Both the position numbers and the translations under genes were made by a program. Shown one piece after another: positions 10,210 through 43,167 of a DNA stretch of 64,000 nt; the first letter of the stretch is position 1; every line of letters begins with the position of its first letter. The stretch lies in contig CAWFAD010000016.1 of NCBI GenBank assembly GCA_963813815.1, forward strand, positions 1-64,000, given 5' to 3'. The stretch comes from an uncultured bacterium. Its GTDB lineage: Bacteria > Krumholzibacteriota > Krumholzibacteriia > Krumholzibacteriales > Krumholzibacteriaceae. The notes under the pieces were generated by a model. It was not told where the DNA came from, made no database searches, and saw nothing but the letters and a program-made list of their open reading frames with translations.

Positions 10210-11490
10210 ATGAAGATGAAAAAGATATCTCTCGCAGCGCTCGTGCTCATCGTCCTCCCGCTCGTCGTTCCGGCGCCGGGACAGGCGATTCCCGCGTTCG
10301 CGCGCAAATACGGATTCAACTGCATGATGTGCCATACGGCCTATCCGAAGCTCAACGATTGGGGACAGCGCTACCGCGACAACGGCTATCAGCTTCCGGG
10401 CCAGACGGGCAAGGAAAAGACCATATTCGATTCGCACACGCCGATCTCGCTTCGCACGGGCGCCGCGCTGAACGGGTACACGGTGAAGCCGGGCGAGGAC
10501 ATGAACGCCTTGACGACCTCGGGCTTCGGTCTCAGGGGGCTCGACCTCCTCGCGGCGGGCGTGCTGCACAAGAACGTCTCGGTGCTCGTCATCTACACGC
10601 CGCGCATCGACGAGCCCTACGCCGACTATACCGGCACGGCCGAGTCGCAGCCCGGCGCGCTGGAGTCGGCGAACATCGTTTTCAGCAACATACTGCCGGG
10701 CGCCCTCAACGTGCGCGTCGGCCGGTTCGAGCCGGCCTTCCATCAGATGAGCTCGAAACGGTCGTACTATCTCACGCAGCCGTACGAGATCTACGGCTTC
10801 GCGCCGAACTCCACCGGGTTCGTATTCGACGACAATCAGATAGGCATCGAGGCCACGGGGTGGTTCCGGTCGGGGCTCAAGTACGCGGCCGGCGTCGTGA
10901 ACGGCACGGGCGCGGCCCCGGACAACAACAAGTGGAAGGACGTTTACGGGAGCCTGACGTACACGCTGGGGGCCGGCGACGGCCAGAACGCGGGGCAGCG
11001 CTTCGGCGTCTTCGCGTACTACGGCAAGGCGCCCCTTTCGCTCCACGACAACACGGTCGTCTCGCCGACGGGCGAGGCGCCGGGCTGCAGCGGCGACCCG
11101 TACTACCGCGCCGGCGGATCGGCGAGCTTCAACTGGAAAACGCTGAACCTCGGCGCGATGTACGTGTGGGGAAGCGACGACGAGGGCTTCAATCTCGCGA
11201 ATCCTTTGGAGAGCTACGACTACAGCGGCGGGTTCGTCGAGCTCGACTGGGCGGGGCTCTGGAACAACCGGCTCGTCGCCTCCGCTCTCTACAACTGGAT
11301 CGCGCCGCCCGATGAAGACGCGGGAAGCGCCAAGCTCAACGCCTACGCCGGTCTCGTGCGTTACTATATCGGCGACTGGAGCGCGGTGAACGTGGCGCTC
11401 CACGGCGAATACGCGTACCGGACGCTCGAGCTCGGAGAGGAGACGACGAAGGAGCATCTCTACACGATGCTCGTCGACTTCGCCTTCTAG
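10210..11490 (+). CDS. Cyc2-like fused monoheme cytochrome c / outer-membrane porin
   Basis: Signal peptide then IPAFARKYGFNCMMCHTAYPKLN..G..Y..NGY; beta-barrel body ending in F. Confidence 0.75.
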   Translation: MKMKKISLAALVLIVLPLVVPAPGQAIPAFARKYGFNCMMCHTAYPKLNDWGQRYRDNGYQLPGQTGKEKTIFDSHTPISLRTGAALNGYTVKPGEDMNALTTSGFGLRGLDLLAAGVLHKNVSVLVIYTPRIDEPYADYTGTAESQPGALESANIVFSNILPGALNVRVGRFEPAFHQMSSKRSYYLTQPYEIYGFAPNSTGFVFDDNQIGIEATGWFRSGLKYAAGVVNGTGAAPDNNKWKDVYGSLTYTLGAGDGQNAGQRFGVFAYYGKAPLSLHDNTVVSPTGEAPGCSGDPYYRAGGSASFNWKTLNLGAMYVWGSDDEGFNLANPLESYDYSGGFVELDWAGLWNNRLVASALYNWIAPPDEDAGSAKLNAYAGLVRYYIGDWSAVNVALHGEYAYRTLELGEETTKEHLYTMLVDFAF

Positions 11491-26467: not shown

Positions 26468-27400
26468 TCAGTATCCGAGCGTGGCGAGGATCAGCGCGAC
26501 GGCCGAGAGAACGAACATCGGCCCCCAGAAGAAGCGCAGCGCATGATCGATCCGCACCCGCGGATTCGTGTTCTTGACGACGACGATGATGACGACGATC
26601 GCGACGTACTTGAGAATCGAAGTGAGGATCCTCCAGCCGACGAAGCTCACGCCCCCCCAGAACATCGTGATGAGGAAGAGCGGCATCACGAGATACATGA
26701 TCGCCGTGTTGAGCCTGACGATGGCGAGCGGAGCTCCCGAATACTCGATGTGCGTGCCGCCCGCGATCTCCGTCTCGGCCTCGGGGATGTCGAAGGGGAT
26801 GAAGCCGAGCTTCGCCTGGGTGCAGAGCATCGCCACGATGAACGCGATGACGCCCGAGGCGCTCCCGAGCATCACGCCGTTGTATTCCTGATGGATGAGT
26901 ATCTTTTCGAAGGAAAAGCTCCCGACCTTGACGATCGTCGTGAGAACGGCCATCACGAGGGGAAGCTCGTAGCCGAAGAGCAGCTTCATCTCGCGGCTCG
27001 CTCCGAGAATGCCGAGCGGGTTGCCCGACGCGCTCCCGCCGATGATGAGGGCGAGCGCCGGGATCGTCATGATGTAGAGCGTGACGATCGAGTCGCCGAC
27101 GAACGACGCCGTGGGGTCGAGGTTGACGAGCCAGAGGATCGTCGAGGCGAGCGTCGCCGCGGCGAGGCCGACGACCGGCATGATGAGGAACCCGGTCGAG
27201 CGGGCGCCGGCGGGCACGACGACCTCCTTGCCGAGGAGCTTCACCGTGTCGGCGAACGGCTGGTACCACGGCGGGCCGACGCGGTACTGCACGCGGGCGG
27301 TGACCTTGCGGTCGACCCACGTCGTGAGAAGCCCGACGACCGCCGAGAAGACGAATCCCGGGAACACGAGATACTTCATCATGAATCCGAATACCTGCAT
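26468..27400 (-). CDS. NuoH/MbhM-like membrane anchor subunit
   Basis: DRKVTARVQYRVGPPWYQPFADTVKLLGKE; PFDIPEAETEI..G..IEYSG. Confidence 0.92.
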   Translation of the reverse strand: MQVFGFMMKYLVFPGFVFSAVVGLLTTWVDRKVTARVQYRVGPPWYQPFADTVKLLGKEVVVPAGARSTGFLIMPVVGLAAATLASTILWLVNLDPTASFVGDSIVTLYIMTIPALALIIGGSASGNPLGILGASREMKLLFGYELPLVMAVLTTIVKVGSFSFEKILIHQEYNGVMLGSASGVIAFIVAMLCTQAKLGFIPFDIPEAETEIAGGTHIEYSGAPLAIVRLNTAIMYLVMPLFLITMFWGGVSFVGWRILTSILKYVAIVVIIVVVKNTNPRVRIDHALRFFWGPMFVLSAVALILATLGY

Positions 27401-27411
27401 GATCTTCCTTG

Positions 27412-27891
27412 CTACCTCGGCAGCGTGAAGCGCGCGAGGTACCGCCCGCCCTCGACGGCGCGTTTCAGCTTTTTCTCGATCTCCGCGAGCTCCTCGAACA
27501 CGAGCGCCCCCGACGTGCACGTGGCGACGCAGCGCGGCTCCTTGCCCTCGGCGAGCCTGTCGGCGCAGAGGTCGCACTTGGGCGAGGTGTGCCACGTCGA
27601 GTACGGGAGCATGACGCCGAACGGGCATGCCATGATGCACGATTTGCAGCCGACGCAGAGGTTGCGCATCCGAGTAATCGTGCCGTTTTCGTCCTTTTTG
27701 ATCGCCTTCTGCGGGCACACGTTGAGGCAGAGCGGCTCCGCGCAATGACGGCAGTGGAGCGGCAGGGTCGCCTTTTCCTGGACGTGCCCGTGCTTGAGAT
27801 GCCCCTGCCCGTGGTGCGCCGCGGCGCACGCGGCCGCGCAGGAGCGGCACGAGGTGCAGAGGTTCATGTTGATATAAATTCTTTTTTCCAT
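27412..27891 (-). CDS. 4Fe-4S dicluster protein (HydN/CooF/DmsB-like)
   Basis: CTSCRSCAAAC, CRHCAEPLCLNVCP, CVGCKSCIMACPFG, KCDLC...PRCVATC. Confidence 0.9.
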   Translation of the reverse strand: MEKRIYINMNLCTSCRSCAAACAAAHHGQGHLKHGHVQEKATLPLHCRHCAEPLCLNVCPQKAIKKDENGTITRMRNLCVGCKSCIMACPFGVMLPYSTWHTSPKCDLCADRLAEGKEPRCVATCTSGALVFEELAEIEKKLKRAVEGGRYLARFTLPR

Positions 27892-34073: not shown

Positions 34074-35360
34074 ATGGCCGACAAATCGTTCAACGCCTTC
34101 GAAATGGCCCAAGCCCAGTTCGACCGGGTCGCGGGGCTCCTCGACCTCGACGAGGCGACGCGGCAGCTCCTCAGAGTCAACCTCCGCGAATATCACGTGA
34201 GCATTCCCGTCCGCATGGACGACGGGACCCACCGGGTGTTCCGCGGATTCCGCGTGCAGCACAACGACGCGCGCGGGCCGGCGAAGGGCGGCATCCGCTT
34301 CCACCCGATGGAGACGATCGACACGGTTCGCGCGCTCGCCATGTGGATGACGTGGAAGTGCGCGGTCGTCGACATCCCTCTCGGGGGCGGAAAGGGCGGG
34401 GTCGTGTGCGATCCGCACCACCTGAGCCTGCGCGAGCAGGAGCAGATCTGCCGCGGCTGGGTGAGACAGCTCTCGAGAAACGTGGGGCCCGTCTCGGACG
34501 TGCCGGCCCCCGACGTCATGACGAGCGCCCAGCACATGCTCTGGATGCTCGACGAGTTCGAGACAATCCGCGGGGAGAGGCTCCCCGGTTTCATCACCGG
34601 CAAGCCGGTCGGCATGGGCGGCTCGCTCGGGCGCACCGAGGCCACCGGGTACGGCGTGGTCTTCACGATCCGCGAGGCCCTCAAGGAGCTCAATATCCCG
34701 CCGAGCGAAACGACGGCGAGCGTTCAGGGCTTCGGCAACGTCGCCCAGTACGCCATCGATCTCTACCAGCAGATCTGGGGCAAGGTCGTCTGCGTCTCCT
34801 GCTGGGATCAGACCGACCAGACCTCCTACTCGTTCCGCAAGCGCAACGGCATCGATCTCGCCGAGCTTCGCGGGATCACGGACCGCTTCGGCGGCATCGA
34901 CAAGGCCAAAGCGAAGGAGCTCGGGTACGAGGTCCTTCCGGGCGAGGCGTGGCTCGAGCAGGACGTCGACATCCTCATCCCGGCGGCGCTCGAGAACCAG
35001 ATCACCGCGGCGAACGTGAAGAAGATCGCCGATCGCGTCAAGATCATCGCCGAGGGCGCGAACGGCCCGACGACCCCCGAGGCGGACGCGGCGATCGCCA
35101 AGCGCAAGATTTTCATGATCCCCGATTTCCTCGCGAACGCGGGCGGCGTGACCTGCAGCTACTTCGAGCAGGTCCAGAGCAACATGAACTACTTCTGGGA
35201 AAAGGACGAGGTGCTCGGCAAGCTCGACGTCAAGATGACCTCGGCCTTCGCCGCCGTGAGCGCGCTCGCGAAGAAGCGCAACCTCTACATGCGCGACGCC
35301 GCGTACGTCATCGCCGTCGGACGCGTCGCGCAGGCCTGCAAGGACCGCGGGTGGGTGTAG
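34074..35360 (+). CDS. gdhA: Glutamate dehydrogenase (Glu/Leu/Phe/Val dehydrogenase)
   Basis: KGGIRFHP, MTWKCA, GGGKGG, DVPAPD, GRTEATGYG, QGFGNV, EGANGP, NAGGV..SYFE. Confidence 0.93.
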   Translation: MADKSFNAFEMAQAQFDRVAGLLDLDEATRQLLRVNLREYHVSIPVRMDDGTHRVFRGFRVQHNDARGPAKGGIRFHPMETIDTVRALAMWMTWKCAVVDIPLGGGKGGVVCDPHHLSLREQEQICRGWVRQLSRNVGPVSDVPAPDVMTSAQHMLWMLDEFETIRGERLPGFITGKPVGMGGSLGRTEATGYGVVFTIREALKELNIPPSETTASVQGFGNVAQYAIDLYQQIWGKVVCVSCWDQTDQTSYSFRKRNGIDLAELRGITDRFGGIDKAKAKELGYEVLPGEAWLEQDVDILIPAALENQITAANVKKIADRVKIIAEGANGPTTPEADAAIAKRKIFMIPDFLANAGGVTCSYFEQVQSNMNYFWEKDEVLGKLDVKMTSAFAAVSALAKKRNLYMRDAAYVIAVGRVAQACKDRGWV

Positions 35361-35431
35361 CCCTCCCCGAGGCACGGACGCCGCACGCGCCGCAGCGCGC
35401 GGCGTCCGCCGCGGGAGACAGGTGAGGCCCG

Positions 35432-37189
35432 ATGCGAAGACGTTCGTACAACCCGCACCGCGGCACGCTCACGCGCTTCGCCCGGGAGTTCTACTCGCCG
35501 GCGGAGCGGTTCACGTACATCGGCTCGGGCGAGCTCGGCGGCAAAGCTCACGGGCTCGCCCGCGTCAAAGGCATCCTCGACTCGAAGTTCCGGGGGGCGT
35601 TCGCCCCCGACGTCGAGGTCGCGATCCCTTCCCTCACCGTCATCACGACGGACATGTTCGATCTCTTCATGAAGGAGAACGACCTCTACGAGACGGCGTA
35701 CTCGGGCGACCGCGACGACATCGTCGCGCACGAGTTTCAGCGCGCCTCGCTTCCCGTGCAGCTCGTCGGAGATCTCCGCGCGCTCGTGGAGCAGGTCCGC
35801 TCCCCGCTCGCGATCCGCTCGTCGAGCCTTCTCGAGGACGCCATGTTCGAGCCGTTCGCGAGCGTCTACGCGACCAAGATGGTGCCGAACAACCAGCCGG
35901 ACGCCGACGGCCGTTTCCGGCGCCTCGCCGAGGCGATCAAGTTCGTCTACGCGTCGACCTTTTTCCGCTCGGCGCGCAACTACATGAAGGCGACGCATCA
36001 CGCGACGATCGACGAGAAGATGGCGGTGATCATACAGGAGGTCGTCGGCACGCGCTTCGGCGACCGGTTCTACCCGCACGTGTCGGGAGTGCTGCGCTCG
36101 TACAACTTTTATCCGGTCGGATACGCGAAGCCCGAGGAGGGCGTGGTCGAGCTCGCGCTCGGCCTCGGCCGGACGATCGTCGACGAGGGCGTCTCGTGGT
36201 CGTTCTCGCCCGCGTACCCGGCGATCGGGCCGCCCTTCAAGTCGATGCGGGACATGCTCAAGCACACGCAGACGCGGCTCTGGGCGGTCAACATGGGCAA
36301 GCCCCCCGAGTACGATCCGATCAACGAGACCGAGTACCTCGTGCGCTGCGGCCTCGAGGAGGCGGAGTACGACGGAACCATCCGGCATCTCGCCTCGACG
36401 TACATTCCCGCCGACGACGGCGTCGAGATGGGGATCGAGGCGCGCGGGCCGCGGATCGTCGATTTCGCGCCGATCCTCAAGGGCGGCGTCCTGCCGCTCG
36501 CCGACCTCCTCGGCCGCCTCAAGGCGACGTGCGAGGAGATGCTCGGCGCCATGGTCGAGGTGGAGTTCGCCATGAAGCTCGGCCGCGAGCTCGCCGCCCC
36601 CGCTTCCTTCGGCTTTCTGCAGGTGCGCCCGATGGTCGTCTCGACGGAGGCGGTCGACGTCGGCGAGGCGGAGCTCTCGGGGGAACGCGTGCTTCTCTCG
36701 TCCGAGAACGTGCTCGGAAACGGCGTCCTCGAGACGATCCGCGACGTCGTCTACGTCGACCCCGAGCGGTTCGACGTCCTGAAATCGCGCGACATCGCCT
36801 CCGAGATCGAGCGCCTGAACGGCCCGCTCGTCGAGGCGCGGCGCCCCTATCTCCTCATCGGCTTCGGCCGATGGGGGACGACCGACCCGCTCGGCGGGAT
36901 CCCGGTCGACTTCGGACAAATCTCGGGCGCCGCGGCGATCGTGGAGGCGTCGCTGCCGAACCTGCCCTTCACGCTCAGCCAGGGCTCGCATTTTTTCCAT
37001 AACGTGACGAGTTTCAAGATCCTCTACTTTTCGATCCGCCATCACGACGGACGCGGCATCGACTGGGAGTGGCTGCGGCGGCAGGAGCGGCGGCAGGACG
37101 GCGCCTTCGCGAGCCGCGTCGAGCTCGCCTCGCCGCTCGTCGTGAAGGTGGACGGCAGATGCGGCCGGGGAGTGATACTGCATGCCTGA
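35432..37189 (+). CDS. PPDK_N (ATP-grasp, PEP/pyruvate-binding) domain protein without phospho-His and PEP-binding domains
   Basis: LGGKAHGL, PLAIRSSSLLED, MAVIIQEVVG, LGLGRT, EVEFA, LQVRP, GRWG, SQGSHFF. Confidence 0.85.
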   Translation: MRRRSYNPHRGTLTRFAREFYSPAERFTYIGSGELGGKAHGLARVKGILDSKFRGAFAPDVEVAIPSLTVITTDMFDLFMKENDLYETAYSGDRDDIVAHEFQRASLPVQLVGDLRALVEQVRSPLAIRSSSLLEDAMFEPFASVYATKMVPNNQPDADGRFRRLAEAIKFVYASTFFRSARNYMKATHHATIDEKMAVIIQEVVGTRFGDRFYPHVSGVLRSYNFYPVGYAKPEEGVVELALGLGRTIVDEGVSWSFSPAYPAIGPPFKSMRDMLKHTQTRLWAVNMGKPPEYDPINETEYLVRCGLEEAEYDGTIRHLASTYIPADDGVEMGIEARGPRIVDFAPILKGGVLPLADLLGRLKATCEEMLGAMVEVEFAMKLGRELAAPASFGFLQVRPMVVSTEAVDVGEAELSGERVLLSSENVLGNGVLETIRDVVYVDPERFDVLKSRDIASEIERLNGPLVEARRPYLLIGFGRWGTTDPLGGIPVDFGQISGAAAIVEASLPNLPFTLSQGSHFFHNVTSFKILYFSIRHHDGRGIDWEWLRRQERRQDGAFASRVELASPLVVKVDGRCGRGVILHA

Positions 37190-40100
37190 TCAGCAGCGAA
37201 AGCTGGACGATATCATCCGGTTCTCGCGCGAGCGCGAGAAAGAGCTCGAGTGCCTCTACCGGATCGAGGAGATCCTCAAGAGGCCCGGCATCGACATGAA
37301 CTCGGCGATCAGGGCGATCGTCGACGCGGTGCCGTCGGGATGGCAGTACCCCGAGGTCTGCCGCGCGAGGATCGACATCGGCACCGAAACGTACGCGCCC
37401 CGGGGCTTCAAGGAAACGCCTTGGGCCCAGCGGGCGGACGTCTTCGTGCAGGGGAAAAAGGCGGGCGAGATCGGCGTCTACTACGCGAAGGAGATGCCTC
37501 CCGCCGACGACGGGCCCTTCCTCACGCACGAAGCGAGGCTCCTGCGGGCCATCGCCGATCGTCTCGGGATCTTCATATTTCACCGGCAGGTCGAGCAGGC
37601 CGTCAAGGACCTTCCCGCGCTGCGGCCGGACGAGGGCGGGGGCGACTGGCAGGTCGTTCTCGACATCCTGCGGCAGACCGACCGCAACCTCCTCGTCGCC
37701 ATGAGCGAGCGAATGCTCAATCTCCTCTGCTGGAGCGGCGTCGAGGAAGCGGAGCGGCTGCGCGACGGCGCCGGCGCGCCCGAGCCGGCCGTCAATGACG
37801 AGGCCTCCGGGCTCGTGAACCGGCCCGGCCGGCGCACCGCCATCGAGATCACCGACGAGCGGAGCCGCGAGATCTTCCGCATCGCAGCGGAGCATTACAC
37901 CGACGATCGGCTCCTCGCCTACATACGGAAATGGCTCCTCGACGACAAGCTCAAGTTTCTCGCCCGCGTGGCGAGCCGCAACCTCCCCCTCGCCGAGGTG
38001 ATCGACGCGCTCCGGCAGTACCGCGACATCCGGCTCGACGGCGTGGGGCTGTCGGACGCTTCGAAGACGGGCGTCGTCGTCTCGCTCATCCGCCGGTTCC
38101 TCTCGAGCCAGCTCAACTACATACGAATCGCGAAGAGCTACGTCGACGTGAAGGATTTCTTCGAGTTTCTCGACCGCACGATCTACTCGACGGAGAGCAG
38201 CGGCAAGCTCGGCGGAAAATGCGCGGGTCTCTTTCTCGCGCGGCAGATCATCGAGAAATCCCCCGAGTCGAACGACCTGCTGCGGGCGATCAAGACGCCC
38301 CGGAGCTGGTACATCACCTCCGACATCCTGCTCCGCTTCCTCAGCTACAACAACATGGACGAGGTGGGCGAGCAGAAATACAAGGACATCAACCAGATCC
38401 GCCTCGAATACCCGCACGTGATACAGGCTTTCAAGAACGCGCGCTTCCCGTCCGAGATCGTTCAGGCGCTCTCGGTCGTGCTCGACGAGTTCGAGGACCG
38501 GCCGCTCATCATCCGCAGCTCGAGCCTCCTCGAGGACAGCCTCGGCTACTCGTTCTCGGGCAAGTACCGCAGCCTCTTCCTCGCGAATCAGGGCACGAAG
38601 CAGGAGCGGCTCGAGGCCCTCATGGACGCGATCGCGGAGGTCTACGCCTCCGTCTTCGGGCCCGACCCGATCGAATACCGGGCGGAGCGTGGGCTCCTCG
38701 ACATCAGCGAGGAGATGGGGGTCATGATCCAGGAGGTCGTCGGCACGCGCGTCGGGAACTACTTCTTTCCGGCGCTCGCCGGGGTCGCCTTCTCCAGAAA
38801 CGAGTTCCGGTGGTCGCCCCGCATCAAGCGCGAGGACGGGCTCATCCGCATGGTTCCCGGCCTCGGCACGCGGGCGGTGGACCGCACGAGCGACGACTAT
38901 CCCGTCCTCCTCGCGCCGGGCCAGCCGGGGCTGAGGGTCAACGTGGCGGTCGAGGAGATCGTGTACTACTCGCCGCGAAAGCTCGACGTCATCAACCTCG
39001 AGACGAACACCTTCGAGACGATGGACGCGCGCGAGCTGCTGCGCCGCCACGGCGGAGAGATTCCCATGCTCGAGAAGCTCGTCTCGGTGTACGACGGGCA
39101 ACACCTTCGCCGGCCGCTCGCCATGAGCGTCGACACCGAGAGAGACTCGCTGTCGTTCACCTTCGAGGGCCTCATGACGGACGGCGTCTTCGTGCCGCAG
39201 ATGAACGGCCTCCTCAAGCTGCTCGAGTCGAAGCTCGGCACGCCGGTCGACATCGAGTTCGCGCACGACGGCCGGGATTTCTACCTCCTTCAGTGCCGGC
39301 CCCAGAGCTTCGGCGAGGACGCCGCCCCCGCCCCGATACCGAAGGACGTGCCGCCGGACTCCGTCGTCTTTTCCGCCCGCCGCCACGTCTCGAACGGCCG
39401 CGTGCCGGACATCACGCACATCGTGTACGTCGATCCGGAGCGGTACGGGGAGCTCGCCGGAGCGGAGCGACCTCGTCGCCGTCGGGCGCGCCGTCGGACG
39501 CCTCAACAAGCTCCTTCCGAAGCGGCAGTTCATTCTCATGGGCCCCGGCCGGTGGGGAAGCAGGGGCGACATCAAGCTCGGCGTCAGCATCACCTACTCC
39601 GACATCAACCGAACGGCCGTGCTCATCGAGATCGCGCGCCGCTCGGGGGGATACACGCCGGATCTCTCGTTCGGAACGCACTTCTTCCAGGATCTCGTCG
39701 AGGGAGAGATCCGCTACCTGCCCCTCTACCCCGACGACGAGGGGATCGTCTTCAACGACCGCTTTCTCAGCGGATCGCCCAACATCCTCGCCGATCTGCT
39801 CCCCGAGTACGCGCACCTCGCCGGCGCGGTGAAGCTCATCGACGTGCCGCGCGCCACGGGCGGAAAGGTGCTGAGGGTTCTCATGAACGCCGAGCTCAAC
39901 GAGGCGATCGGCATCCTCGCGGAGCCCCAGACGGGGACCCGGCTCGCCCCGGCGGCGCCGGAGGAGGGGGCGCGGCCGGCGGAGCAGTTCTGGGTGTGGC
40001 GCCTCCACATGGCCGAGCGCCTCGCGAGCGAGCTCGACGCCGGACGCTTCGGGGTCGTCGCCCTCTACGTGTTCGGCAGCACGAAGAACGCGACCGCCGG

Positions 40101-40359
40101 GCTCAAGAGCGACATCGATCTCCTCGTCCACTTCCGCGGCACGCCGGAGCAGCGCGCCGAGCTCGGCCTGTGGCTCGAGGGTTGGAGCCTCGCGCTCGAC
40201 GAGATGAACTACCAGAAGACGGGGTACCGCACGGGGGGCCTGCTCGACGCTCACGTCGTCACCGACGAGGACATCGCCAACAAGACGAGCTACGCGATCA
40301 AGATCGGCGCCGTCACCGACGCCGCGAGGGCGCTTCCGATGAAAAAGAAGAGCGAGTGA
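37182..40359 (+). CDS. PPDK_N-domain protein with N-terminal sensor-like region and C-terminal nucleotidyltransferase; +1 frameshift near 39460
   Basis: LGGKCAGL, RSSSLLED..FSGKY, GLGTRAVDR, DIEFA, LQCRP; after removing one G at 39459-39460: GPGRWGS, SFGTHFF and Pol-beta motif FGSTK...SDIDL. Confidence 0.82.
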
Positions 40360-40363
40360 CCCG

Positions 40364-41212
40364 TCAGAGAAGCTCGCGGCGGGCGTCTCCCGGATTCTCC
40401 AAATCGAACCGGACGAGCGCGAGCTCGGGGCCGTCATGGGCCGCCGAGATCGCCACGGTGCGCCCGATGCGCACGCTCCACGTTCCCGTCAGGCGCGCCG
40501 ACTCGTGCACGTGCCCGTGGAGCGTCACGAGCGGGGCGCGCTCCTCGATGAAGCGGCGTATCGCGATGCTGCCGACGTGGACGTCGAGCGGGACGTGGTC
40601 GATCTTCATCCCGTCGAGCGCGGCCCGGTCGAGCCCCGAATCGTGCGGCGGCGCGTGGAAAAGGAAGACGGCGAGCGCGAGATCGTCCTCGCCGGCGAGC
40701 GCCTCGAGATCGTCCTTGATCGTGGCGTACTCGAGCTCGTCGGCGGGAACGCGCACCGTCAGCGCTCCGTCGGCGGGGGCGACGCACCCCGGGTCGACGT
40801 GCCGGGAGACGTCGTAGCGTTCCCAGTCCTTGAGGCGGAAGGGCGTCGGCGGCACGTACGCGTACCCGTACACCGTCCACCGCTCGAAGCGCTCCCGGCG
40901 TCCGTGGATGTACGAGACGACTCCGTCCCGCGAGGCCTCCTCGAGCGCCGTCTCGCCGTGCCGTCCGTCGTCGTTGCCGAGGATGACGAACACGCGGGGG
41001 TAGGCGGCGCCGAGCGCGTCGCGCAGCCGCGCGAGCCCCGCGAGGAAAACGTCCTCCAGAAAATCCCCGGCCGGGCCGCCCGCGTGGAAGTGCGGCAGGA
41101 TGTCCCCGCCGACGAAGACCGCCCGGGGCTTCTCGGCGGCGATGGCGTCGAAAAGCTTGAGACAGCGCTCGCGCTTACCGTGAAGGTCGGACACGAAAAA
41201 GCAGCTCGTCAT
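40364..41212 (-). CDS. Metallophosphoesterase (Icc-like)
   Basis: SDLHG, GGD, GNDD, HAPP, HGHVHE. Confidence 0.88.
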   Translation of the reverse strand: MTSCFFVSDLHGKRERCLKLFDAIAAEKPRAVFVGGDILPHFHAGGPAGDFLEDVFLAGLARLRDALGAAYPRVFVILGNDDGRHGETALEEASRDGVVSYIHGRRERFERWTVYGYAYVPPTPFRLKDWERYDVSRHVDPGCVAPADGALTVRVPADELEYATIKDDLEALAGEDDLALAVFLFHAPPHDSGLDRAALDGMKIDHVPLDVHVGSIAIRRFIEERAPLVTLHGHVHESARLTGTWSVRIGRTVAISAAHDGPELALVRFDLENPGDARRELL

Positions 41213-41401
41213 TTCGCCTTCGTCCGTTCGCTCGCCGCCTCCGAAGCCCGGAACCGCAGGGGCCATAATACCATATTTTCCTTTAATTTCGGCCCCGCAT
41301 GCTATAGATTATCTTCCGTCGGCGAGCCGTCGCTCATAATAATCGCAACAGCAGTTGTACTATAAGGTATGGAGGAAGGGCGTTCGCCCGCCGTGACAAA
41401 A

Positions 41402-42581
41402 ATGAGTGCCGCACGAAATAAAGAAATATACATGGACCACATAGCCGCCGGGCCGGTGCGCCCGGAGGCCGCGCGAGCCATGTCGGAGCTCCTGCGGGAC
41501 GGGTTCGGGAACCCCTTGAGCGTGCATTCCCGCGGACAGACCGCCGCGGAGGCGCTCGCCCGGGCGCGGGAGCAGGTGGCCTCCCTCGTCGGCGCCGAGC
41601 CCTGGGACGTGATATTCACCGCGACGGGGTCGGAGGCCAACAACCTCGCCCTCAAGGGTATCGCCCCGGCGCGAAAAAAGAAATCGAACCGGATCGTGGT
41701 CTCCGCGGTCGAGCACCACTCGATTTTGAACCCGGCGCGCACGCTCGCCAAGGAAGGGTACGAGCTCAGCGTCCTCCCCGTCGACGGGCACGGGCTCGTT
41801 TCGGCCGCGAGGCTCCGCGAGGAGCTCGCGAAAGGCGCCGCGCTCGTCTCCATCATGCACGCCAACACCGAGATCGGAACGATCGAGCCCATCGAGGAGC
41901 TCGCCGCCGCGTGCCGCGAGTTCGACGTTCCGCTTCACTCGGACGGATGGGGAACGGCGGGCGTCGTCCCGGTCGACGTGAAGCGGCTCGGCGTGGCCGC
42001 CTACTCGATCGCCGCGCAGAACTTCGGCGGCCCGCCGGGGGCGGCCGCGCTCATTCTCCCGAAAGGCACGCCGGCGCGCGCCCTCATCGAGGGCGGGGTG
42101 CAGGAGCGGGGGCTCCGCGCCGGACAGGAAAACCTCCCCGCCATCGCGGGGATGGGCGTCGCCGCGGAGCTCGCGCTCGCGGAGCCTCGAGGAAACGGCC
42201 GCGCGCACGCGCGCCGTCCGCGACGCCCTGCTCGCGCGGCTGCCGTCCGAGATCGCCGACGTCATCGTGACGGGGCATCCGGAGCGCCGGCTCCCCAACC
42301 ACGCGAGCTTCTGCGTGAAGTACATCGAGGGAGAGGGAATGCTCCTCCTCCTCGACGGCGCCGGGATCATGGCGGCGAGCGGCTCGGCCTGCACCTCGAA
42401 AGCGCTCAAGGGAAGCTACGTACTCGAGGCGATCGGCGTCGACACCGCCGTCGCGCAGGGCTCGATCGTTTTCACGATGGGGCCGGAGAGCGAGCTCGCG
42501 GACGTCGACGCGATCGTCGCAACGATGAAGCCCGCCGTCGCGCGGCTGCGCGAGATGTCACCGTTATACCGGAGGAAGTAA
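41402..42581 (+). CDS. nifS: NifS/IscS-family cysteine desulfurase homolog, PLP Lys replaced by Asn; +1 frameshift near 42185
   Basis: FGNPLSVH, TGSEANN, EHHS, HANTEIGTI, LRAGQEN, SGSACTS; removing one C at 42185-42186 joins the two ORFs. Confidence 0.85.
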
Positions 42582-42585
42582 GGTC

Positions 42586-43167
42586 ATGGCTCTCTACAGC
42601 GACAAGGTGATGGATCATTTCATGAATCCCCGCAACGTCGGCGAGATCCCCGGCGCGGACGGCGTCGGCGAGGTCGGCAATCCCGTCTGCGGCGACATGA
42701 TGACCTTTTACATCAAGGTGAAGGGTAACCGCCTCGCCGACATCAAGTTCAAGACCTTCGGTTGCGGCGCGGCGATCGCCGTCTCGAGCATGGTGAGCGA
42801 GATGGCGACGGGGAAAACGATCGAGGAGGCGCTCGAGATCACCAACGAGTCGGTCGCCGAGGAGCTCGGCGGGCTTCCGAAGAACAAGATGCACTGCTCC
42901 AACCTCGGCGCCGACGCGCTCCACGCGGCGATCGAGAACTACCGCGCGCGCAAGCGCGGCGAGCCGGCGGCGTCCGCGGCCGCCGGGCACGGGCACGATC
43001 ACGAGGAGTGCACGTGCCCCTTCTGCGACGCGGAGATCGACGGGGAGGACCCGATCTGCAGGACCTGCGGCGTGGAGTTTCTCGAGTGCCCCGCCTGCGG
43101 CAAGCTCGCCTCGAACAAGGACACGGCCTGCCCCCACTGCGGCGCGGGGCTCGGGAAGAAGGAATAG
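42586..43167 (+). CDS. iscU: IscU/NifU-type Fe-S scaffold with C-terminal double zinc ribbon
   Basis: YSDKVMDHFMNPRN, NPVCGD, FGCGAAIA, KMHCS; tail CPFC/CRTC/CPAC/CPHC. Confidence 0.92.
   Translation: MALYSDKVMDHFMNPRNVGEIPGADGVGEVGNPVCGDMMTFYIKVKGNRLADIKFKTFGCGAAIAVSSMVSEMATGKTIEEALEITNESVAEELGGLPKNKMHCSNLGADALHAAIENYRARKRGEPAASAAAGHGHDHEECTCPFCDAEIDGEDPICRTCGVEFLECPACGKLASNKDTACPHCGAGLGKKE

Follow-up and report, generated by a model that had tools for sequence, protein, structure and literature searches.

Barrel-less relatives of PEP synthase and PPDK adjoin a glutamate dehydrogenase gene in Krumholzibacteriota and may control its product

Glutamate dehydrogenase (GDH) connects carbon and nitrogen metabolism, and to our knowledge no dedicated modifying cascade for the bacterial enzyme has been described. 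We analysed a 64,000-nucleotide stretch of DNA (the window) from contig CAWFAD010000016.1 of an uncultured Krumholzibacteriota bacterium, in which a gdh gene is followed on the same strand by two paralogous genes, here called A and B, and a convergent gene encodes a calcineurin-like metallophosphoesterase (MPE) (Table 1). Coordinates and strands agree with the layout given in the original prediction, which had been made from the window's letters; the reading frames of A and B overlap by 8 nt. Both GDH domains, the ATP-grasp domain (PPDK_N) of A and of B, the nucleotidyltransferase (NTase) domain at the end of B (NTP_transf_2) and the phosphoesterase domain (Metallophos) passed their Pfam cut-offs, with PPDK_N reaching 108 bits in A and 198 bits in B (cut-off 27). 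A shares 29% identity with intact B over 568 columns. The source genome (G000) is 91% complete, and the closest named relatives carry Krumholzibacteriota labels.

Table 1. Genes and predicted domains of the gdh-A-B-MPE locus (window coordinates)
Feature	Coordinates	Strand	Remarks
Glutamate dehydrogenase (gdh)	34074..35360	+	428 aa; distinct clade, GDH1
Paralog A	35432..37189	+	585 aa; PPDK/PEP synthase-type ATP-grasp and predicted divergent His swivel, without acceptor domain
ATP-grasp (PPDK_N) in A	35531..36658	+	Pfam
Predicted divergent swiveling phospho-His domain in A	36644..37186	+	His520 codon 36989-36991; starts a helix
Paralog B	37182..40359	+	~1058 aa in relatives; GAF, helical region, ATP-grasp, His swivel, Pol-beta nucleotidyltransferase; one frameshift
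Predicted GAF sensor domain in B	37212..37622	+	Structure match 3cit Z 13.0, NifA GAF 8jrc Z 11.9
ATP-grasp (PPDK_N) in B	38205..39344	+	Pfam and structure alignment
Predicted His-swivel domain in B	39360..39930	+	Crosses frameshift; conserved His codon 39679-39681 (His833 in intact relative L003)
Pol-beta-type NTase domain in B	39982..40356	+	GS, DxD and third Asp conserved
Calcineurin-like MPE	40364..41212	-	Convergent; stop 4 nt from B stop; candidate NTase eraser

The window copy of B changes frame near 39456-39459, where it has one base more than relatives L001-L003. A genuine split of B was rejected, given that the NTase is in frame with B in 62 of the 63 related loci that reach that far. 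In addition, a near-identical public contig (run X1) renders 829 window bases as 828 letters, with 5 mismatches and one gap somewhere along its length. The frameshift is probably an assembly error. The structure of B was modelled from the intact relative L003 instead of the frameshifted window copy.

The nucleotide-binding core of both proteins is well preserved. The ATP-grasp motifs are intact in A and B, and RSSS..ED is found in 214 of 215 proteins, counting A, B, short B and A' (A-type proteins with receiver domains). The PPDK/PEP synthase motifs singled out in the original prediction, along with GRWG and S.G[STA]HF, are kept in nearly all family members, the last of these in 78/81 A, 85/85 B, 11/11 short B and 38/38 A' proteins. 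In the predicted structure of intact B (pLDDT 82.5), the best structural match of the ATP-grasp domain is the RPH-AMPPNP complex (5hv3, Z 25.8). The N-terminal region, previously described as sensor-like, is predicted to form a GAF fold at residues ~11-147 (Z up to 13.7 in the structure comparison), which is followed by a helical region; further leads for this GAF domain were under 0.9. No barrel of the kind that binds PEP (phosphoenolpyruvate) or pyruvate was found in either paralog, in agreement with the earlier reading: A stops at the swivel, and B runs on into the NTase. The NCBIfam models of PEP synthase and PPDK scored 15-50 bits against cut-offs of 598-740, and those of the RPH family 24-42 bits against cut-offs of 999-1700. 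Elsewhere, G000 encodes a complete 936-aa PPDK and an Enzyme I-sized swivel protein. Because the barrel is missing and the genome has a complete PPDK elsewhere, we conclude, as had been proposed, that A and B are not PEP synthases.

The C-terminal domain shared by the two paralogs requires a different assignment from the one first given. The Pfam swivel profile PF00391 has no match in A or B, and the original prediction therefore reported no phospho-His swivel motif and regarded both proteins as PPDK_N-only. By its predicted fold, however, this domain (GRWG...S.G.HFF) belongs to the phospho-His swivel domains, in divergent form and with a His that is nearly invariant, and a feature named beforehand as evidence against the prediction is thus present at the level of fold. 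Specifically, an AlphaFold model of A residues 400-585 (pLDDT 89, from 94 alignment rows picked by presence of the His motif) has a strand, a loop, His520 at the start of a helix, and a closing beta hairpin, which we take to be the element order of the PPDK carrier domain; the register of the His is read from this order of secondary structure, not from coordinates. When the isolated domain was searched against 48,161 chains, the best rows were a DRTGG domain (Z 6.9), the PPDK carrier 2fm4 (6.8) and the pyruvate kinase swivel (6.8), followed by RPH (6.7), maize PPDK (6.3), Enzyme I (5.6) and then other swiveling beta/beta/alpha folds, and Foldseek ranked PPDK first, though only at E 0.03. Stronger evidence comes from the model of full-length B, which can be superposed as one body on PEP synthase 2ols (303-914 to 13-467; 363 residues, root-mean-square deviation 3.9, Z 25.1) and on PPDK 1dik (303-928 to 12-522, Z 18.1); for the PPDK entries 1vbg, 2r82 and 5jvn, the alignment reaches only residue 712 of the model. 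Since the B model aligns through the C-terminal domain as one body, this domain in the model occupies the docking place of the swivel on the ATP-grasp. Of 154 aligned stretches from the best 150 cluster representatives, all but one retain the swivel His (153). A profile search of the PDB aimed at the swivel gave no relevant match, and the Atlas gave unnamed clusters only.

The survey of gene neighbourhoods against gdh that accompanied the original prediction as a proposal reveals a strong linkage. The best 80 of 358 confirmed matches to A were analysed as loci, whose titles name Krumholzibacteriota, Zixiibacteriota, Ignavibacteria, Bacteroidales, Calditrichota, KSB1, Acidobacteriota, Aminicenantes, Phycisphaerae, Eisenbacteria, Coatesbacteria and proteobacterial metagenome-assembled genomes. 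In 72 of these 80, a GDH1 gene is found no more than 1 kb upstream; among the other 8, it is further off in 1, other GDHs are present in 2, and none is found in 5, of which 4 stop at a contig edge. B directly follows A in 73 of 74 loci with room for it, and the MPE is convergent within 250 nt in 50 of 60 loci, nearby in 3 and absent in 7. The family as a whole comprises 814 clusters (50% identity) at E up to 1e-30 and 2574 at E up to 0.001.

To describe the association within one phylum, we used an evenly drawn sample of 101 genomes of the window's phylum, of which 94 contain the family. GDH1 was counted at an identity of at least 68%, which retained 76 of 90 rows and excluded 12 distant GDHs and 2 fragments. 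The B core is present in all 65 genomes with GDH1, GDH1 is present in 65 of the 70 genomes with B, and 31 genomes have neither; at the level of genes, a B core lies within 8 kb of 71/76 GDH1 genes, and GDH1 lies near 75/94 B places. The genomes are related and not independent, and these figures are therefore counts rather than statistics. For 11 GDH1 genes that seemed free of a cassette, a short B-type gene is nearby in 9, and the other 2 genomes carry one on another contig, and so there is no clean control set. In Bacteroidota, the family occurs in 24 of 121 genomes, and a member lies within 7 kb of gdh in 21 of these 24 (one being the seed genome), or for 34 of 41 matches. Altogether, two separate GDH families are partnered by these ATP-grasp/swivel proteins.

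The GDH of the window has both Pfam domains and the glutamate-binding and catalytic residues expected of a glutamate-specific member of the Glu/Leu/Phe/Val dehydrogenases. Its catalytic and substrate residues K71, K95, K107, D147, R187, T191 and S362 are intact, and the catalytic set is kept in 94 of 99 GDH1 sequences; its best NCBIfam model, GdhA_Arch, scores 466 bits, under the cut-off of 750. GDH homologs without the catalytic lysine occur inside cassettes at L150:12668-14149, L151:4362-5813, L029, L047, L078 and L174; at L150 and L151, the pseudo-GDH stands ahead of A, and an intact GDH1 stands ahead of the phosphoesterase on the opposite strand. G000 has a second GDH, of family I, without such an ATP-grasp partner within ~10 kb (a GdhA-type gene at G000:C16:134910-135644, apparently frameshifted near its start).

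The composition of the cassettes falls into four variants. Variant I, as here, reads GDH1-A-B-MPE, with GAF and NTase in B; variant II reads A'-GDH1-B, with receiver domains in A', an NTase and no GAF in B, and no MPE; variant III has GDH1 adjoining a 775-aa B with neither GAF nor NTase; and variant IV has a family-I GdhA adjoining A'. Because the variants differ in this way, we take the constant unit to be a GDH plus an ATP-grasp/His-swivel protein, and regard GAF, NTase, A and MPE as additions to it. In the grouping of the proteins, A falls together with A', and short B with B. A-B fusions of 1523-1663 aa are encoded at L072:4122-9113 and by P0123-P0125, the last three carrying two C-terminal domains; the existence of such fusions suggests that A and B function jointly. 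No recurrent neighbour family was seen at the loci besides GDH and the phosphoesterase, and no separate barrel or substrate-binding domain was among the recurrent neighbours.

Several variants show further features. The variant II cassettes L157, L158, L160, L166-L169 and L176, from related genomes, adjoin genes for saccharopine dehydrogenase, an AlaDh/PNT-family protein and aldehyde dehydrogenase, likely a lysine-catabolic set that would cycle 2-oxoglutarate and glutamate. In A' proteins (e.g., L047:762-3737), the first receiver domain looks degenerate, and a DUF5752 segment stands ahead of the ATP-grasp; in the second receiver domain, the acidic-pocket, Asp, Ser and Lys positions are kept, as judged by eye. 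A further B-like paralog (44-47% identity) is convergent with the B gene in G202:C99, G203:C6, G210:C13 and G192:C32.

We next consider the nucleotidyl layer. The Pol-beta NTase that had been noted at the C terminus of B holds up, with 27.7 bits for NTP_transf_2 (cut-off 21) and conserved GS, DxD and third Asp. In the phylum sample, the MPE is found in 55 genomes (one 39% match being excluded), and 54 of these also have the NTase; conversely, it is absent from 10 of the 64 genomes with an NTase and from all 7 genomes that have B without one. The MPE thus co-occurs with the NTase as an eraser would, which fits the role suggested for it, and we infer that the two form an optional writer/eraser pair. 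The earlier proposal that GlnE/GlnD-like nucleotidylation is the core function did not hold, since B proteins without an NTase partner the same GDH clade, and no GDH residue tracks the NTase. Three tyrosines of GDH1 (Tyr285, Tyr363 and Tyr411) are conserved throughout the groups. Many columns of the B core differ between NTase-bearing and NTase-less sets, a difference that is confounded by clade. No Pfam or NCBIfam match to GlnE or GlnD family domains was found in A or B. An antitoxin NTase of the MntA type was also rejected (NF047752, 20.6 bits against a cut-off of 60), with no HEPN annotated among the recurrent neighbours. In two other loci, the NTase occurs in a different setting: L174:4665-8852 encodes 1395 aa with MASE1, PAS and partial SpoIIE joined to a C-terminal segment of B, NTase included (an apparent fusion, as assembled), followed by a family-I GDH without the catalytic lysine and then a phosphoesterase, and L175:7346-7897 encodes a stand-alone 183-aa NTase domain ~2.7 kb from a phosphoesterase (10605-11459), in a genome with no match to the B core or GDH1.

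Gut Bacteroidales offer a link to existing data. Three matches from a plasmid collection were examined, all that it gave. In two of them, from Parabacteroides distasonis and Phocaeicola massiliensis, an A' homolog is flanked by two gdh genes; in the former (L197:10000-13211), genes annotated as nucleotidyltransferase-family, endonuclease/exonuclease/phosphatase and RapZ stand between A' and the second gdh. Baggio and Morrison reportedly described a trans-acting factor for GdhA in Bacteroides in 1996, and the segment involved is said to be 3 kb long, the size of an A' gene. In B. thetaiotaomicron, the locus number of BT1972, a gene annotated as PEP synthase/PPDK, falls between those of two gdh genes, BT1970 and BT1973 (PMC8121099), and BT1972 is a probable A' homolog. 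Its cofitness is 0.82 with korB and 0.82 with korA, which encode 2-oxoglutarate synthase, in Table S3 of that paper, which contains only pairs with a cofitness of at least 0.8; BT1970 is cofit with amino-acid biosynthesis genes (PMC8121099). Because of its cofitness with korA and korB, BT1972 can be tied to the 2-oxoglutarate/glutamate node, not specifically to GdhA. The available text of PMC5552732 holds nothing further on BT1972.

Altogether, we consider it somewhat more probable than the opposite that A and B descend from PEP synthase/PPDK, lack the barrel, and serve as His autokinases controlling the adjacent GDH post-translationally, with an optional nucleotidyl writer/eraser layer. In such a mechanism, the ATP-grasp would spend ATP on placing a phosphate on the conserved His of the swivel in its own chain; the architecture for this step is seen in the proteins, and the chemistry is very likely. 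The phospho-His arm, which has no acceptor domain of its own, would then act on the GDH oligomer, and that GDH is the object of this control is likely, though less so than the autophosphorylation itself. The arm could either transfer its phosphate to GDH or bind GDH in a manner that depends on its phosphorylation state, as proposed for VadK, and we regard the two modes as about equally plausible. B would be the obligate partner of GDH, which A probably joins as a heteromer, and the GAF domain (or the receiver domains in the A' subfamily) would bring in a carbon/nitrogen signal. The NTase/phosphoesterase pair, where present, would be layered on top, and its target may be the kinase or GDH. The fullest form of this proposal, in which widespread PEP synthase-derived protein kinases phosphorylate GDH directly from the swiveling His, are tuned by GAF or receiver domains and by the NTase/phosphoesterase, and include the Bacteroides trans-acting GdhA factor of 1996, is tentative and, in our estimate, rather less probable than not. 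If true, GDH would have a nitrogen-control cascade of its own, a counterpart to the PII-GlnD-GlnE cascade that acts on glutamine synthetase.

A number of observations weigh against the control of GDH by such autokinases. For the swivel, the evidence is only structural: hhalign against 26 swivel domains did no better than 30 shuffled controls. The isolated domain's Z score of 6.8 is of a size also given by common arrangements, and a DRTGG domain scores level with it. The swivel motif given in the literature, T/SxxGGxxxH (PMC12167813), is unmatched in the C-terminal domain of A and B, and their swivel therefore counts as divergent. For the linkage, 19 of the 94 B-core places in the phylum sample have no GDH1 within 8 kb, 5 of the 70 B-bearing genomes have no GDH1 match, and in the third plasmid-collection record, L199 from Prevotella, no gdh occurs in the surrounding 7 kb. 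In Table S3 of PMC8121099, the partners of BT1972 at a cofitness of at least 0.8 are korA and korB only, not the gdh gene BT1970, and that BT1972 is an A' protein is deduced from its position and label. For GDH as a target, Lys107 is lost in 3/99 cassette GDH1 sequences, a loss that suits GDH in the part of a scaffold or holder of a ligand just as well as in that of a target, and GDH1 has no Ser, Thr, Tyr, His or Lys that marks out the NTase loci (59+13 versus 10 sequences).

One alternative, which we consider fairly unlikely, is that A and B are part of a two-component small-molecule dikinase. Here GDH, active or pseudo, would supply the acceptor-binding module, and a ligand bound to it (2-oxoglutarate or a reaction intermediate, glutamate, or NAD(H)) would be phosphorylated, coupling ATP to the GDH reaction without any switching; the NTase could add a nucleoside monophosphate to the phosphorylated product. 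HpeHI and RPH do phosphorylate small molecules, HpeHI being divided over two proteins (PMC12167813), pseudo-GDHs persist in cassettes, and BT1972 is cofit with 2-oxoglutarate synthase and not with gdh (PMC8121099). However, GAF and receiver sensors together with a writer/eraser pair suit regulation better, and nearly all GDH1 sequences keep their catalytic residues. Moreover, the active site of GDH lies in a deep cleft, which also speaks against this explanation.

The remaining alternatives appear weaker still. That the core activity is a GlnE/GlnD-like nucleotidylation of GDH by the NTase of B, reversed by the phosphoesterase, is improbable: the conserved catalytic residues of the NTase, its in-frame fusion to B and its co-occurrence with the phosphoesterase, including the absence of the latter from every B genome without an NTase, fit this idea, but the NTase-less partners of the same GDH clade, the lack of an NTase-specific modifiable residue and of any GlnE/GlnD family match, and the NTase genomes without a phosphoesterase all count against it. 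We regard as slightly more doubtful a phosphorelay from phospho-His to a receiver Asp that controls expression or another target, with GDH as a sensor input or a co-regulated neighbour. A' does bear receiver domains, the second with its phospho-acceptor features, and a sigma-54 response regulator is present in 11 of 138 clustered loci; yet A and B have no receiver domain, no receiver gene is constant among the neighbours, and VadK is reported not to work through transcription (PMC13400623). Finally, database names and the PPDK_N match would suit an ordinary PEP synthase/PPDK completed in trans by a separate barrel, which is very improbable given the lack of a barrel in the proteins or recurrent neighbours, the scores far under the family cut-offs and the complete PPDK of the genome.

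The closest precedent for autokinases that control GDH is VadK (Rv1127c) of mycobacteria, a barrel-less, PPDK-derived His autokinase that tunes a metabolic enzyme and for which phosphorylation-dependent binding has been proposed (PMC13400623). VadK likewise combines an ATP-grasp with a phospho-His domain, lacks a pyruvate/PEP domain and has a central metabolic enzyme as its object, but it is PPDK-derived, ~50 kDa and sensor-free, and transfer to its target is not reported in the available text (PMC13400623). In the A/B family, in contrast, the swivel is enlarged and divergent in its motif (S.G[ST]HFF), input comes through GAF or receiver domains, and there are an NTase, a pairing of two paralogs and gdh as the partner. 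The PRK05878 model, presumably that of the VadK group, gave 16 bits on A/B against a cut-off of 456. With PEP synthase and PPDK (2ols, 1dik), A and B share the arrangement of an ATP-grasp followed by a swivel His domain and the catalytic motifs; they differ in having no PEP/pyruvate barrel, in the replacement of the canonical GGxTSH, and in falling under all family cut-offs. RPH, the best structural match to the ATP-grasp of B, and HpeHI/phenylphosphate synthase illustrate how ATP-grasp/swivel chemistry has been reused with other acceptor modules, even across separate proteins (PMC12167813). These enzymes carry a dedicated substrate-binding domain, whereas none was found in A or among the recurrent neighbours. 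GlnE and GlnD are Pol-beta NTases tied to a nitrogen enzyme with a phosphoesterase-type eraser; B differs from them in having a single minimal NTase fused to a dikinase, an eraser encoded by a separate gene, and an NTase that is dispensable in part of the family. In Thermus GdhA/GdhB and Bacillus GudB-GltAB, GDH is controlled by partner proteins, including a catalytically dead GDH subunit, which resembles the pseudo-GDHs in some cassettes here, but those systems have no kinase or NTase. Altogether, A and B would work like VadK and the swivel dikinases and are members of neither PEP synthase/PPDK nor GlnE/GlnD.

No description of the A/B-GDH family was found in the literature searched, a scope outside which lay most subscription journals and the supplements of unopened papers, and A and B probably act as a hitherto undescribed switch on an enzyme central to nitrogen metabolism. 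New here are the swivel assignment, the minimal GDH-plus-B unit, the dependence of the MPE on the NTase, the BT1972 cofitness link and the VadK precedent. The family is mis-annotated as PEP synthase, and some of its members adjoin gdh in gut Bacteroidales. The swivel His is a single residue to mutate, B. thetaiotaomicron with its BT1972 is a tractable host, and the report of a trans-acting GdhA factor becomes testable. With control of GDH by these proteins, the idea of regulators derived from dikinases, as put forward for VadK, would apply to far more bacteria than before.

Changes of frame are also seen elsewhere in the window. The cysteine desulfurase (IscS-like) gene at 41369-42610 changes frame between ~42200 and 42280 and appears continuous in L001 and L003; this split is probably an assembly error like that of B. 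An iron-sulfur oxidoreductase gene cluster at 27059-27891 contains more frame changes relative to L001.

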